DNA of 64,000 nucleotides from Octopus vulgaris (taxonomy: Eukaryota), in NCBI GenBank assembly GCA_951406725.2, contig OX597836.1:45446001-45510000 (forward strand). The letters run 5' to 3'. How positions within the stretch are numbered: position 1 is the first letter of the stretch; each line of letters opens with the position of its first letter. The translations under genes and the position numbers were made by a program. Positions 986-48,212 of the stretch are shown piece by piece. A model generated the notes under the pieces. The model ran no database searches. It saw nothing but the letters and a program-made list of their open reading frames with translations, and was not told where the DNA came from.

Positions 986-1410
986 CAAATAAGAAAATGG
1001 AGAAACAAATTTAGTTTGTTCAACTTAACTTTCACATATTATAATGTTGGATTATTTATTCATTTAACAAAATGAGAACATCAATAGCATACATATGACC
1101 TCGTGTGTACCGTTGGCGATTTTTTTCCTCCGTCTTCCCTTCTCTAGATATTTCCTTTTCCTTGTTTCTGACGAAGAGCTCCGCTCGAAACGTTAAACCC
1201 TCCTTCTTCCCTTCCTTCCTGAGCGTCCAATAACACTATATTTGTTCCACGTCCTCGCGTTGTTGTGTTTTCTCTTTGTGTTTTCATGCTTGGATTAACT
1301 ATCTTATAATTCAATACATATAAGATAAGAATACAAATTATAAAAGTCATAATATAAATTATTGAAATCATTAAAATCACTTCTTACAGCTGTTTCAGCC
1401 CATGGCTAAA
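982..1410 (-). mobile_element. PLE-type 3' terminal fragment abutting (TA)n, interrupted by a second HHR cassette (about 1099-1300)
   Basis: Starts AATACAAATAAGAAAATGGAGAAACAAAT, as at 40577 and similar to 13769 and 29396. Carries only the 3' half of an HHR (reverse complement GAAACAGCTGTAAG) at 1383-1396. Confidence 0.6.
1164..1198 (+). ncRNA. Minimal type I hammerhead ribozyme motif
   Basis: GTTT-CTGACGA-A-GAGC-TCC-GCTC-GAAA-CGTT-AAAC. Helix I is GTTT/AAAC, helix II is GAGC/GCTC and helix III is the palindrome AACGTT. Confidence 0.8.
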
Positions 1411-1788
1411 AGTAGATAATTTTATTTTCATTGCCTATAAAATTATCTACACCTGTTGTAAATGTTATTTGTATTTGTAATTGTGTACAATTTCTCCGTT
1501 TTTTTCCCGTCCGTTTTTTCGTCCTTGTTTTCGTATACATTCGCTTGCTTTCTTCCAAGGAGTCTAGTGCTCATAGCTTTGATTTACTTTGGGCCGGCCA
1601 GATTGGAGCAGTCTCGAATGTAACCGGCTGAAACTGCTAAGATGATCTGGAACTCGACTGAGGATAAGAAGCTCCGAATGACCCGACATTGTTTTTCCTG
1701 TCTTTTTTTGTATCGTCTGTCCGGACGTTTTGTCGCCTGTTACGTTCTTGTTTCATATTTTGCTTTCTTTATACATACATACATAGAA

Positions 1789-2680: not shown

Positions 2681-2841
2681 CTCTTACACCTGTTTCAAGA
2701 ACAGATGTGCATATGATGCATTTCTGTGCAAACGAAGATAAACTATCCATATAGCTGCAGTCGATTCCATATTCGGAGAGAAAATAAGGTAGATCTTTAG
2801 TAGCAAACATTTTAGTAGTGATCAGTTCCATCGTCGGAGAG
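2681..2841 (-). ncRNA. HHR motif with U4C core and about 135-nt helix-II insert
   Basis: Reverse complement reads CTCT-CCGACGA-[about 135 nt]-GAAACAGGTGTA-AGAG, with helix I CTCT/AGAG. A diverged inverted copy lies at 2841-2975. Confidence 0.55.
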
Positions 2842-5540: not shown

Positions 5541-5925
5541 ATAAGAATTGCGAAAAACGGAAAATTTAGAATAAATGATAATTCATTTGGAATAAATTTA
5601 GCATAAATGACGAAATATATTTTATGTAATAAAGTAACAGATTTGATAAATTAATTAGACAATAAACATTTTGTGTAAATTAGAAAATTGCTTTAACACA
5701 TTTATCGTTACAACAGGTGTTGAAATTTGGTCGTCTTAACGAAATTTTTAATTGCCGATTATTACCATTCGTAAAAAATTCAGCAATTGGCAACGAGTAC
5801 TGAATCGATCTCCGATGTAGAACGTAGGTTAATACGTGCGAATGAATGTTTCAGCTGGTATTTGTGAATATGCCGTGGGTGAATTTCATTTGCAAGACAA
5901 AGTAGTTACTTCGATTTTATTACGT

Positions 5926-6782
5926 ATGTCAGTTGATACCATCTCTGGCAAGGGCTTTGAAATAAAACCTAGAAGAAGTTCCAGACACCCAGCTGAATAC
6001 TTAACAGACACTGACTTTGCTGACGACATCGCTCTTATCAGTGATTCTCTTTCCAATGCCCAGTCTCTTTTACAATCTCTTGACCAAGCCTCAAATTGTG
6101 TAGGTCTTTACCTCAATGAGGCCAAGACTGAATACATAAACAAGTGCCTATCCAACAGTGATTGCATCATCCATACTCTCAACAATGCGCCCTTAAATAT
6201 GATTTCTGATTACAAATATCTTGGGTCATACATATCATCATCCGAAAAAGATTTTCTAACTAGAAAGGGTATGGCCTGGTCAGCCTGTAATGATATGCAT
6301 AAGATCTGGTCATCAAATCTAAGTAGAGACTTCAAACTTAAAATCTTCAAAGCCATAGTCGAACCAATTCTATTATATGGCTCAGAAACGTGGACGTTAT
6401 CAAAGAAGCTTGAGAGGCGGTTGGATGGAACTTACACTCGCCTCCTTATGAGAGCTCAAAATCTCTCGTGGAAGCGTCATCCAACCAAAATGCAAATATA
6501 TGGAAAATTACTACCTGTGTCATCTCTTGTGAAAGGTAGGAGAGTCCAGTTTGCTGGACATTGTTGTAGAGCTGAAAACGAGGCAATTTCTACTCTTCTC
6601 CTCTGGAAGCCATCTACTCGCAATACCAGAGGGCGCACACTCTCCTACCCTGATGTAATCTCCAGGCATACAGGCATCCAGTAACAGGACCTCCGTAATG
6701 CTATGATGGGCTGTGAAGTCTGGCGTAGCATGGTAAATTCCATTGTCTCGACCACAGTCGAACAATGATGATGATGATGATG
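5926..6782 (+). mobile_element. 5'-truncated RTE-group LINE with open RT C-terminal ORF (to 6684)
   Basis: Motifs DFADDIAL, YKYLGS and PILLYGSETWTL; (ATG)n tail; 10-bp target-site duplication (TSD) TTTATTACGT at 5916-5925 and 6783-6792. Confidence 0.9.
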
Positions 6783-13332: not shown

Positions 13333-13405
13333 TCTTACTGAAGAGCCAGCCTGAGTAAATAAATATTATTTTTATTACTGAATTTGGCGAAACTGCAGTA
13401 TAAGA
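13333..13405 (+). ncRNA. Type I HHR motif with extended helix II
   Basis: TCTTA-CTGAAGA-GCCA-[36 nt]-TGGC-GAAA-CTGCAG-TA-TAAGA. It lies between about 80-bp direct repeats at 13095 and 13499. Confidence 0.85.
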
Positions 13406-13727: not shown

Positions 13728-13769
<42 letters not shown>

Positions 13770-13973
13770 CAGCAATAAGAAAATAGAGGGGATCAAGAGG
13801 TAATATTCATCAACTTTTACATATTATATTATGTCTATTTATTTATTTTAAAAAACCCATTATAACAATATACATACATGTATAACATCTGATTTACATA
13901 TATAAAATATAAAATATAAAAATACCAGTAATTATAAAAATATATAACGTAGAACATAGGAAGTAGAATAGTA

Positions 13974-14096
13974 TCTTACAGCTGTTTCAGCCAAGAGGTT
14001 ATAGTACCTCATTTTACTTCCATCCCTTCAGTGAACTGAAGTATTTGGTAGATAAGATTAAGGTACGTGGATGTGCCTCTGGGCTTCGTCAGAGAG
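13974..14096 (-). ncRNA. Type I HHR motif with about 100-nt structured helix II
   Basis: Reverse complement reads TCT-CTGACGA-AGCCCAGAGG...CCTCTTGGCT-GAAAC-AGCT-GTA-AGA. Inner pairings are GTACCT/AGGTAC and CTTCAGT/ACTGAAG. Confidence 0.78.
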
Positions 14097-14174
14097 TTTA
14101 GAAAATTCATAAGGTTAAGTTATAAATATAAATATATGCATATATACACACTTTTACATTCTTTCCTTTCTTTT

Positions 14175-29115: not shown

Positions 29116-29225
<110 letters not shown>

Positions 29226-29395
29226 CCAAAAGAGTTAGAGTTTCTTAATCCAACCAACTAAGGAATAATATCTATCCAATATATTGCAGGTAGGAAACCC
29301 AATTATTAATACACAAGTGTTTTCTTTTGCATGGCAATTACAGTAGTGAATGTTATAAATGGGTGAGAGTAAAAAAGTTTTTTACCCTTAATTCA

Positions 29396-30740
<1,345 letters not shown>

Positions 30741-37238: not shown

Positions 37239-37323
37239 GCATCTGAAGATAGCAGTGTATTTCAAATTGATGTAATGCTTGCATTGATCGATTAAATGGA
37301 GCCGCTTGAAACTACCGTAATGC
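37239..37323 (+). ncRNA. Type I HHR motif with extended helix II
   Basis: GCAT-CTGAAGA-TAGC-[about 50 nt]-GCTT-GAAAC-TACC-GTA-ATGC, about 40 bp upstream of (TA)n. Confidence 0.7.
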
Positions 37324-39175: not shown

Positions 39176-39365
39176 CCATATTAAAAGCAGTAAAGTATTG
39201 TAATCATTCATAAATTTCTCAGATCACTTTCTTTGGAGTTGATGAAACCCTTCAACACCTCCATTTCTTCTTAATTTGACACTTTCAGCAACAGCGAAGA
39301 AATTAAATCTTTATTCAACCTTAAAAAAGTCAAATGTAATTCTTTAAGTCTCTCTATGCTTTCAT

Positions 39366-39962
39366 GCCAAAGAATGGAGCAGTCATCTAGATGTTTCTTC
39401 CAGTTATTTTCTTAATTTCTATGTAAAGGGAGGATGGGCTTCGGTAGTTCTCTAGTACCTTACTATAAAGAGTGATTTCTAGGTACTCCATTCTTAGGTC
39501 AGCAAAGGAAGGGGCCATTATCGTACCCATTGCAGTCCCGAAATTGTCGATAGATGTTGTCACTGAATACGAAGAAGTTATTCTCCAAGATGAATTTTAG
39601 CCCTTTTATTACGAATTCTTTTTTGATGCGGTGTGGGAGTTCATTGGAGTAATTCTTTAGACAGAATTGGATTGCCTCTATTCCTAGGTTGTGGGGGATA
39701 TTAGATTACAGGTTGACTATATCGAAGGATACTAGTAAGGTATTTTTTTATTAATTGTTTCAGGGAGGTAGTTGAGCATATCTAGGTGGTCTCTTATGTA
39801 GCTTTTGATATTCTTGGGGAATGGTTTTAAGAGGGTGTCTAAAAAGTTGCTGAGGCGGTGAGTTTCGCATGCGGAGCCTGCTATTATAGGTCTTAATTTT
39901 GAAGTCAGTAGGTGGCGGTACCTTGACTATTATGTCTGTGGCCCCCTTGCATGCGTTACTTA
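39366..39962 (-). mobile_element. Penelope-like element reverse transcriptase remnant
   Basis: Manual translation across stops and frameshifts gives RPIIAG..CETHRLSNFLD, LLVSFDIVNL*SNIPH, GTAMGTIMAPSFADL and WKKHLDDC. Confidence 0.85.
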
Positions 39963-39964
39963 TA

Positions 39965-40579: not shown

Positions 40580-40920
40580 CAAATAAGAAAATGGAGAAAC
40601 AAATTATCTCGTTCATCAACTTACGGATATTACAATTTAACATTATTTATTAATTATACAAATGAGAACATCAAAAGCAAACAAGAGATTATATAAATCA
40701 ATAGGTAATATAATAATAAGAATAATACAAATACATATTTTAAAAGTCATATTATAATATGTATTTGCATTATTTTAATGATTATATTACCTAATCATTT
40801 ATATAATCTCTTGTTTGCTTTTGATGTTCTCATTTGTATAATTGATAAATAATGTTAAATTGTAATATCCGTAAGTTGATGAACGAATTGAATTTGTTTC
40901 TTCATTTTCTTATTTGTATT
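40577..40920. mobile_element. Fold-back PLE-type termini
   Basis: Arms 40577-40700 and 40797-40920. Same family as 982. Confidence 0.75.
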
Positions 40921-41109
40921 ATAAATTTACGGTAAAAATATTTTTTACCTTCACCTATTTAATACAATAAATGAATTAATTGCATTGCAATTAAAGACAT
41001 TTATGTATTAAGAATTTGGGTACTTTACCAACAGTATATTGGATAACTGATGTCCCATAGTGGGTTACATTCATAACCCCTATCTTACTTTGCGCTATAT
41101 ATATATATA

Positions 41110-44050: not shown

Positions 44051-44195
44051 ACACACACATACACACACACATTAATTAAAGGTCACGGTACATGCATTAA
44101 AGCGCTACTAAAAGTTTCATATGTTGAGAAAAGCTCAAACATATTCTTCAGGCGTAAACCACATATCATAACGAACTAAAGAATTTGAATAATAG

Positions 44196-44530: not shown

Positions 44531-44640
44531 ATTTGAATAATAGAAGAAGCGCGAAAAAACTGAGAAGGTAGCATATAGTAAACTTAGACTGTAAACAACG
44601 AAAAACGGAAAGTTTACCTATGTTCACTTGAGATCCAAAA

Positions 44641-44935
44641 ATGAACAACATTCTGAAAACACATAAGTTCATCAAATGCAAAAAGCAACACAAATCGCTG
44701 AAAAGACTTCTGAAAAATGCGAAGCTTTACACAAAAACCACGAAACTAACGGCTAAAAAATGTGGATGTCCAAACCGTGGAACATGTCCCAACCTGCAAG
44801 AAGGCTCAGAATTCCTATTCAAACAAGGAAAGAGGTTCACAATTAAAACCAACTTCCCTTGTACTTCCGAGAATCGAATTTATGTTATAACTTGTTCAGG
44901 TTGTGGACATAACTATATAGGACAGACAAGTATGG
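44641..44935 (+). mobile_element. Penelope-like (Neptune-type) linker plus GIY-YIG endonuclease remnant
   Basis: Cys-rich linker KCGCPNRGTCP, then CTSENRIYVITCSGCGHNYIGQT. Confidence 0.85.
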
Positions 44936-45199
44936 TTCTCAACATTTTCCCGGCCATCGCCCCACCTAAAAGCTATTTTTGACGTAAGCTAATTGAAAAT
45001 CGCCCACCAGAAAATAACAAATGCTAAATATAATGTTATTACGATTAATCAACACTGAAAAAAATTTGTACATGTAAATGCAAACGAAAAATGAATTAAA
45101 ATAAAATTTTATTCTTAATTTAAATGTAGAAAAGGACGAACTAGTGTGAGCCCAAAGATTGGTGATGTTCCGCTGAAAATTCAATATGAGGCTTAAATG

Positions 45200-46689: not shown

Positions 46690-48212
46690 AATTATTAGTC
46701 CTTCTCTACCTATCCACCACCAATGGTGACACACTTCTTCCATCGCTGTATGGAGTTGTGAAGACCTCGTCTGTAGAAGTCGGTAGGTTGCATCTGGAGC
46801 CAAGACTTTACCTCGGAAATAAGTTCATCATCATCCGAAAAGTGCTTCCCTTTCAAATAAGACTTCATTGTCGGAAAGAGATGGAAGTTAGATGGTGTGA
46901 GGTTCGGAAGGTAAGGTGGATGAAGAAGGATTTCATAGCCACAGGAGTGTGCTTTCATCTGGGCAACATGCGCATTGTGAACTGGGGCGTTGTCTCGGAG
47001 GGGGCGGACTCTTTTGATCAGCATGCCACGCCTCTCTACTTTGATGACGTTCTGTAATTTCTGTAGCAGAGAAGCATAATATGCCCCATTAATTGTGGTT
47101 CCCTTTAGCCAGAAAATCCATCATCACTATTCTACGCTGGTCCCAAAAGACTGAGCATCACCTTGCCTGTTGAGAGTTGGATGCGAGCCTTCTTTGGAGG
47201 TGGTGTGTTATCATGCTTCCATTGCTTCGACTGGACTTTAATCTCAGGTCATAGTGATGGACCCATGTTTCTTCCTGTATAAGTCTGCCGAAAAAGTCCT
47301 TCTTGTTTTCTTGGCGCATTGTCAAAAGAGCTTGGGAGGAATTGATTCGTGCAGACAACTTCCGCATGTGCAAATGGTCGTGAATGAGTTTTTCCACGGA
47401 CCCTAGACTTATCTTCATTTCTTGGGCTTCCATTTTATAGATGGTGTCGTCTTCAATGGTGGAATGTGGTTGTCCAGGCATAGGAGCAGTTTCCACCGAT
47501 ACTGAACAGGCGATGTCAGTGCTTGACTACATCGTATGATGGTGCATCGTCACCATTAACTTTCATCTTGTTGAAAGTATCTTTTGGTGTACAACCTTTC
47601 AAGTATAATAACCTGATCACTGGTCTACATTCAACTACTTCCTTTATAACACCTGAGTCCACTTCAGCAGCCGTAAAAGACAAGCGAACACTTGTGGCAA
47701 GCTGCAATTTACAATGTGACATGTAGAAGACATACATATAGGAGTGGCTGTGTGGTAAGTAGCTTGCTTACCAACCACATGGTTCCGGGTTCAGTCCCAC
47801 TGCGTGGCACCTTGGGCAAGTGTCTTCTACTATAGCCTCGGGTCGACCAAAGACTTGTGAGTGGATTTGGTAGACGGAAACTGAAAGAAGCCCGTCGTAT
47901 ATATGTATATATATGCGTGTGTTTGTGTGTCTGTGTTTGTCCCCCTAGCATTGCTTGACAACTGGTGTGTTTATGTCCCCGTTACTTAGTGGTTCGGCAA
48001 AAGAGAACTATAGAATAAGTACTGGGCTTACAAAAGAATAAGTCCCGGGGTCGATTTGCTCGATTAAAGGCGGTGCTCCAGCATGGCAGCAGTCAAATGA
48101 CTGAAACAAGTAAAAGAGAAAAAAAGAGATATATGATTATACCTGTATAAGTTCCGATTCCTGCAATAACCGGAAGAGGGTTAGGGGAAAGTTTTGATGA
48201 ACACCCCTCGTA
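46690..48212 (-). mobile_element. Mariner transposon fossil with a nested SINE A (+, 47740-48128)
   Basis: ETWVHHYD, DNAPVH and HPPYLPNLTPSNFHLF (YSPDLAPSD-like). The terminal repeat reads TACGAGGGGTGTTCATCAAAAC on the minus strand at 48191-48212. Confidence 0.88.

Follow-up and report, generated by a model that had tools for sequence, protein, structure and literature searches.

The window, the whole 64-kb stretch of Octopus vulgaris DNA analysed here, carries on its minus strand a hammerhead motif (13974..14096) within the 3′-end fragment of a Penelope-like element (PLE). The features of this locus, and of an insertion of the same family elsewhere in the window, are:

13767..14159, minus strand: 5′-truncated 3′-end fragment of a Hydra-clade PLE (family A), 86% match to longer copies, 396 nt
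13767..13800, minus strand: conserved CUCC(A)UUUUCUUAUU motif before the first fixed 3′ end, likely the first start site of reverse transcriptase (RT)
13974..13976, minus strand: helix I, 3′ strand (AGA), predicted 5′ end of the cleaved RNA
13977..13988, minus strand: core 3′ half GAAA, helix III/palindromic loop (ACAGCUGU) and cleavage triplet GUA
13989..14085, minus strand: helix II, 97 nt, an unbranched interrupted rod as predicted from fold z, subfamily folds and pair counts
14085-14082 with 13992-13989, minus strand: arm helix AGCC/GGCU, predicted fold
14080-14076 with 13998-13994, minus strand: arm helix AGAGG/CCUCU followed by an internal loop, predicted fold
14066-14061 with 14009-14004, minus strand: arm helix GUACCU/AGGUAC followed by an irregular stem, predicted fold
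14026..14041, minus strand: arm terminal hairpin CUUCAG-UUCA-CUGAAG, loop sequence variable between subfamilies
14086..14092, minus strand: catalytic core 5′ half CUGACGA, assigned by sequence and retained in the majority of 32 family copies
14093..14095, minus strand: helix I, 5′ strand (UCU), outer pair swapped in some subfamilies
29211..29669, long-end arm on the minus strand and short-end arm on the plus strand: palindromic two-armed insertion of the family 3′ tail without the ribozyme, both arms into TA repeats

On the minus strand, CUGACGA (14092-14086) is followed by a 97-nt insert (14085-13989) and by GAAA-C-AGCU-G-UA, which bears out the initial annotation that had placed the two core halves about 100 nt apart. 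The motif has the type I hammerhead core, with CUGANGA, GAAA and UH in order, and its predicted cut falls between 13977 and 13976. Around the core, helix I is open and has 3 bp (UCU/AGA), helix II is closed by 4 bp and helix III has 2 bp; an active hammerhead fold was possible under constraint, ∼5 kcal/mol above the minimum. The palindromic helix III/loop 3 of minimal PLE hammerheads is present as ACAGCUGU, which self-pairs as an 8-bp duplex (-11.1 kcal/mol) and forms no hairpin in the monomer fold. A palindromic helix III with weak stems is the build of hammerheads proposed to act as dimers (PMC4209133), and the palindromic 2-bp helix III suggests that cutting would require a dimer or protein help. 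The pair that closes helix II directly after the core was G-U in 51, A-U in 16 and G-C in 4 of 71 aligned rows, and the combination of a G10.1-C11.1 pair and an additional base following A9, typical of the minimal PLE hammerhead, was not found. In some subfamilies the outer pair of helix I shows a compensatory swap from U-A to C-G.

The core is intact in the majority of the BLAST-chosen family-A copies (n=32), and at 5 of 130 columns, all outside the core, the window copy departs from the majority sequence of the 32 aligned copies. An Rfam scan of the 64-kb window returned no hammerhead and no riboswitch family among the best 150 of 326 matches. Two patterns that require only the core halves at a spacing of 80-111 nt, and that largely exclude family A, gave 54 and 818 matches in the genome, and the reversed patterns gave 0, so that the motif is not a product of chance. 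As judged from its sequence, the window motif is a type I hammerhead whose helix II measures 97 nt, and it is likely self-cleaving.

The insert folded with -31.8 kcal/mol (z -3.78), and none of 200 shuffles was equally stable. The pairings AGCC/GGCU, AGAGG/CCUCU and GUACCU/AGGUAC proposed earlier are all present in the predicted fold. The terminal hairpin, proposed as CUUCAGU/ACUGAAG, was recovered as a hairpin, but with 6 predicted bp around a UUCA loop instead of 7 bp. The description of helix II as a branched domain has to be given up, because all arm helices are nested and end in one terminal loop; a single unbranched hairpin was predicted for the window arm and for the majority rows of 11 of 13 subfamilies. 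The window hammerhead lacks a short loop II. Two further readings of the arm were rejected, namely an intron (no conserved splice ends occur in the 71-row insert alignment) and a kissing-loop dimer (the arm terminal loops are neither palindromic nor self-complementary).

The window stretch had 961 first-look candidates in the genome, and the 40 that were scored were 90-95% identical. Among 60 loci returned, 50 carried an insert homologous to that of the window as judged by eye, and clustering of the inserts placed 108 of 113 as homologous. Arm length across this long-arm family is 95-110 nt, a range bounded by the spacing allowed in the search patterns, so that shorter or longer homologues would have been missed. 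We aligned 71 inserts, omitting most near-identical family-A copies, near-duplicates and copies with deletions. At least 13 subfamilies, 42-91% identical, account for 68 of the 71 rows and have hundreds of copies in the genome. The family also occurs in contigs of three other organisms, whose sequences were unusable for covariation.

The arm had z ≤ -2.4 in the majority rows of 11 of the 13 subfamilies, which are not independent of each other; the long-range fold is kept by paralogues, as the initial annotation had required. Only 2-17% of randomly drifted controls, in which the closing 4 bp were kept, fell below z -2. When the closing helices were removed, the distal arm reached z ≤ -2 in 9 of 13 subfamilies vs. 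7-10% of controls, and the distal rod was not significant in the other 4. In a sliding-window control on one decayed copy, none of 27 windows reached z ≤ -2.4, but all of these windows were out of register with the arm, so that the control is uninformative. The structure drawn on the 71-row alignment collected 161 double-change cells vs. 41-84 when it was slid, a comparison biased by construction, as the structure was drawn after viewing the alignment. Clean double swaps were seen at seven pairs, one of them in helix I, and of the 36 distinct changes found in the middle two helices, only 12 preserve pairing. The inner helices slide or erode between subfamilies, and the middle helix is eroded in the G and H groups.

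The proposed check for covariation across genomic copies came out negative: a tree-aware test on 71 rows and 7875 pairs gave no significant pair, and the best E value (0.25) belonged to non-pairing columns. RNAalifold found no arm consensus in the 71-row sequence alignment, and no covariation within family A was informative (32 young copies, star-like). In ten comparisons with family A, the insert was 52-74% identical and the 3′ tail 67-81%, over a shuffled baseline of 48%; among four segments, the insert came last for sequence conservation in 8 of these 10 and ranked under the 3′ tail in every one. The insert has seventeen invariant columns, which belong chiefly to the closing stems. At the edge of an internal loop, A37-A38 and U40 are the same in all 13 majority rows, with the AA unpaired in several of them; this invariant AA is a candidate for a loop I/loop II tertiary contact.

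These data suggest that (i) the rod is retained far above the random-drift expectation, and the arm is predicted to be selected for structure; and (ii) with folds retained, middle-helix changes mostly unpaired and arm letters diverged, shape is kept while exact pairs and letters are not. An arm that is less conserved than the tail between the two element ends argues against a ligand pocket or an RT signal. The arm itself has the look of an expansion that is tolerated and selected for its structure, a less surprising outcome than a sensor would be.

The assignment to a PLE made at the outset was borne out by co-oriented RT and GIY-YIG remnants upstream. In longer copies the ribozyme is preceded by ∼2.5 kb of AU-rich sequence and then by co-oriented decayed coding sequence, with decayed RT and GIY-YIG reading 1.5-2.5 kb upstream of the hammerhead. 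The family-A copies L284, L285, L255/L256 and L341 have an upstream RT (FDITMGSPDSAE), a CxCX5C linker, GIY-YIG (PF01541, E 1e-5) and CxxC/CxH; the linker and endonuclease motifs read CDCRISGNC, CMLC and CLH. The only protein match to the coding remnant was 81% identical and octopus-named. Copy L018, the only one that reaches the N-terminus, has the DKT motif as SDKTRNIY, and the single copy reaching the expected RWK position has RIRWR there. An endonuclease 55-66% identical was found upstream in 4 of 18 long flanks of other subfamilies (L323, L327, L328 and L339), the flanks being partly selected for long shared upstream sequence. The locus G000:C17 11.811-11.818 Mb is a two-armed insertion with an inverted ribozyme arm, RT, endonuclease, 3′ region and ribozyme. 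An RT followed by a C-terminal GIY-YIG and co-oriented with the hammerhead downstream, the CxCX5C linker, CxxC/CxH around the endonuclease E/N, and insertion into (TA)n are Hydra-clade features, and they establish the element's identity: by these sequence marks, the host is a Hydra-clade PLE with the hammerhead near its 3′ end. The general size below 3 kb, a tendency rather than a diagnostic feature, is exceeded, as the family-A 3′ non-coding part is ∼3 kb. No intact ORF of the long-arm lineage was found, the available copies holding frameshifted pieces.

Two other hosts were considered. A short non-coding element or retrozyme was dropped, given the coding remnants upstream and one hammerhead per arm; short tandem units that each hold a hammerhead, the mark of retrozymes, were not seen. 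An abundant intact element with 776-876-aa frames, which we take from its motifs to be Neptune-like, was rejected as a partner since no long-arm hammerhead adjoins it in 20 regions and the two relatives that adjoin such an RT are antisense. That family (L227-L233, L237, L240; e.g., G000:C14:38229000-38238900) is young, with many intact frames and a 5.8-kb tandem unit; scans of it revealed no canonical hammerhead and a 3′ half-core-like GAAACCGGUUA in the spacer. At L108/L247 (G000:C5:3497500-3507300) a ribozyme arm of the superfamily adjoins, in antisense, the 5′ part of a different PLE; the junction has a 37-nt duplication and possibly reflects a template switch between elements.

The fragment at 13767..14159 terminates at the “short” fixed 3′ end, within a TA microsatellite. 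Among 64 ribozyme copies with the downstream motif, 36 stop ∼200 nt past the cut, 20 continue to a second conserved block and mostly end at ∼385, and 8 do neither. The fixed 3′ ends lie ∼180 nt apart, and the tail between them has conserved hairpins (25 predicted pairs, 1 double change). This 180-nt tail (L004:1800-2038 and A3) is conserved subfamily-wide, with GGU...ACC and GGAUA...UAUCC hairpins, and is a candidate RT-binding signal. These ends point to likely fixed RT start points ∼200 and ∼385 nt downstream of the cut. They match the two internal RT starts described downstream of a protein-assisted hammerhead (PMC11167929), so that the tail, not the arm, is likely the RT signal. The initial proposal that the insert is a ligand-responsive or RT-recognition module is thus disfavoured by the fixed start points, by the rank of the insert under the tail and by the sliding and eroding inner helices. 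Fragments of the same superfamily occur elsewhere in the window, namely a ribozyme 3′ half at 1378-1445 (minus strand) and a tail piece at 40900-41107.

If the RNA is cut, copies might begin at the cut. Copies were chosen through a motif located 17 nt past the cut (n=67). Start points between -2 and about +10 relative to the cut occur in 15 of them (14 events), with 4 falling exactly on it; 5 copies begin between -22 and -3 and one at +17, and the remainder comprises 3 small deletions, 1 duplication and 42 read-through copies. Three exact-cut starts are palindromes, in which the copy reached the cut and then turned back on itself; a small duplication is common to three of the four exact starts, and those three are possibly not independent. 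Control windows had 3/24 and 3/21 breaks per 44 nt. The per-base excess of junctions, counting 14 in 11 nt, was about sixfold (odds ratio 6.4, p 9e-6), in a window picked post hoc and with junctions classified by eye; the whole-window comparison (20/67 vs. 6/45) was not significant (p 0.067). The junctions peak at 0 to +10 and not at the base of helix II, the strong stem (about -13). This excess suggests that the RNA is cut in the cell, hinting at cleavage of the long-arm hammerhead in vivo, and RT stalling at the 3′ edge of the ribozyme would likewise yield nearby junctions. In ∼6% of each of three RNA runs, with reads that were few, shallow, from both strands and mostly <95% alike, no pile-up of ends was detected at the cut, and a motif derived from read ends was absent from the genome.

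Long arms are not confined to this family. The initial annotation listed three related inserts in the window, at 13333 (44 nt), 37239 (about 58 nt) and 2681 (about 135 nt). The 44-nt insert was confirmed, within a complete hammerhead at 13338-13400 (plus strand), and another complete hammerhead, with a 26-nt arm, lies at 44106-44151 (minus strand). A 58-nt-arm family is real (window 37243-37319, plus strand; L081-L095), with 2077 first-look candidates, a rod of z -2.8 and several inverted pairs, but its window copy has a broken helix III. At 2681 the copy does have a spacing of 134 nt, whereas the working core of its family is the inner one, with a 73-nt arm. In this 73-nt family (window 2685-2837, minus strand; L061-L080) a duplicated and mostly decayed 5′ half-core lies 59-61 nt upstream of the working one: the inner half-core is intact in 10 of 17 scoreable copies and the outer in 3 of 17 (3 of 20 were unscoreable), and the window copy has lost the inner and kept the outer, upstream duplicate. 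A duplicated 5′ strand of this kind is one conceivable route to long arms. The supposed kinship of the four inserts failed on model scores, which place them in separate families. The 97-nt family model gave 68-118 bits for its 17 listed members, ≤30 bits for the 58- and 73-nt families and, within the window, 22 bits for 2681, with 13338 and 37243 not listed; these low scores indicate that the three inserts are not homologous to the 97-nt insert. Long arms thus occur in several unrelated window families, and 21- and 26-nt arms are also present. Hammerheads with 88-98-nt arms at L186-L194, L099, L125 and L257 score ≤36 bits and by sequence are probably further long-arm families. Among other remnants in the window are decayed PLE pieces from RT and endonuclease, a fragment of a LINE RT (RVT_1, DUF6451) and one of a DDE transposase (39292-39963, minus strand; 44611-44940, plus strand; 5833-6684, plus strand; 46713-47120, minus strand).

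We consider it probable that the motif is a self-cleaving type I hammerhead of a Hydra-clade PLE, whose expanded helix II is a self-contained rod that holds the core closed and is not a sensor. Helix II would have grown to 95-110 nt, and reverse transcription by the element protein would begin at two points, ∼200 and 385 nt past the cut. With uncut or re-ligated RNA as template, RT would traverse the ribozyme, as in about two thirds of copies; with cut RNA, RT would run off at the cut and could snap back, giving copies and two-armed palindromes that start there. The arm would be selected to remain paired within a very AU-rich, slippage-prone 3′ region, and selection for pairing alone in such a region would leave sequence and register free to drift.

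A regulatory or protein-docking role of the arm is possible, and a sensor role is unlikely. The arm might be a dedicated docking or allosteric domain through which the element protein, a host dsRNA-binding protein or a second ribozyme switches cleavage on. Retention of the rod despite endonuclease divergence to 55-66% identity, the invariant A37-A38 and U40, the long arms (44, 58 and 73 nt) of unrelated window families, with the 58-nt rod at z -2.8, and the requirement of a Penelope hammerhead for its protein in vitro (PMC11167929) are consistent with this. Loop and inner-helix sequences, however, vary between subfamilies, the terminal loops are not palindromic and the insert is less conserved than the tail; 26 of 26 published Hydra rows have arms ≤26 nt (PMC8557442), and in the one Penelope element tested the minimal RT template starts at +20 of an ORF whose own start is at stem II (PMC11167929). 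We regard such a domain as unlikely. A specific form of it is rather doubtful, in which the ∼100-nt rod is an evolved control arm that licenses cleavage via the element protein or a second ribozyme, with cut RNA as the template for about a fifth of copies and uncut or circular RNA for the others; if true, this would amount to a protein-switched hammerhead occurring in nature and would directly show that Penelope hammerheads cut during transposition. A riboswitch-like, ligand-sensing module that controls cleavage is highly improbable. Engineered aptamer switches are usually placed in helix II, but the arm has no multiway junction and few invariant unpaired bases, a pocket of conserved junction or loop nucleotides was not found, and the Rfam matches cited above include no riboswitch family.

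It is also conceivable, though we consider it quite improbable, that the RNA is not cut in vivo and that the fold is selected for RNA stability, RT pausing or template switching, the junctions arising from stalling plus microhomology. The 3-bp helix I and 2-bp helix III, the ∼5 kcal/mol cost of the active fold, the lack of RNA read ends at the site in shallow reads and the short repeats directly after the cut, which could favour snap-back, would fit this reading. So would the finding that insertion in vitro is unaffected by hammerhead mutants (PMC11167929), and one study in which 8 of 9 retrozyme dimers showed no cleavage. Against it stand a junction peak away from the helix II foot with four exact starts, the compensatory swap in helix I and the core retained in the majority of BLAST-chosen copies. 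We retain the self-cleaving hammerhead with a structural rod as the preferred reading.

Hydra-clade PLEs (PMC8557442, Craig et al., 2021), which include the named octopus member Hydra-1_Obim, share with the present element the C-terminal GIY-YIG, the CxCX5C linker, DKT, CxxC/CxH, TA targeting, a type I hammerhead near the 3′ end and inverted 5′ arms. In contrast, their hammerheads (26 of 26, File S2) have a stem II of 3-7 bp, a loop of 3-10 nt and an arm ≤26 nt, compared with 95-110 nt here; the elements are generally <3 kb, whereas the 3′ non-coding part of family A alone is ∼3 kb; and two fixed ends ∼180 nt apart are a feature of the present family. The minimal metazoan PLE hammerheads (Cervera and De la Pena, 2014; PMC4209133) are likewise type I, with a short helix I, a palindromic helix III and many truncated single and inverted copies. 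They differ in having a 6-8-bp helix II, a G10.1-C11.1 pair and an additional base following A9, where A-U or G-U closes directly here. In the published descriptor (PMC4209133) the core halves stand ≤24 nt apart, not counting optional single bases. The 97-nt arm is four times that limit and lies outside the published stem II of 3-7 bp and loop 2 of 3-10 nt (PMC4209133 Fig. S7), so the initial expectation that descriptors limiting helix II would miss the motif holds.

Selaginella PLE-X1 hammerheads also have an enlarged helix II (about 50 nt in two elements, at most ∼53 nt, flagged as deviating; PMC8557442 File S2); these elements are from a plant, are endonuclease-less and have half the arm length seen here. 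In Poseidon PAc (Frangieh et al., 2024; PMC11167929) two internal RT starts past the hammerhead also define two genomic 3′ ends, but its tail is 30-40 bp vs. about 180 here, and no sign of cleavage in vivo is reported for it, whereas copies cluster at the predicted cut in the present family. Animal non-LTR retrozymes (PMC7229834, bioRxiv 10.64898/2026.07.22.740005) share the type I fold, the weak palindromic helix III and PLE relationship; they are short non-coding tandem repeats, whereas the motif here lies in the 3′ region of a coding element.

A literature search that covered part of the supplements did not find a 100-nt helix II in PLEs. What appears to be new is the ∼100-nt helix II; the ribozyme type and the retrotransposon clade are already known. 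With hundreds of hammerheads (872 pattern matches besides family A) beyond the published limits, such elements are likely undercounted, both in hammerhead tallies and through “no hammerhead” calls. In the single reconstituted PLE system, cleavage was dispensable and cut ends were unseen in vivo (PMC11167929). The pile-up of copies at the predicted cut offers a readout, testable genome-wide, of what the hammerhead does in PLEs.
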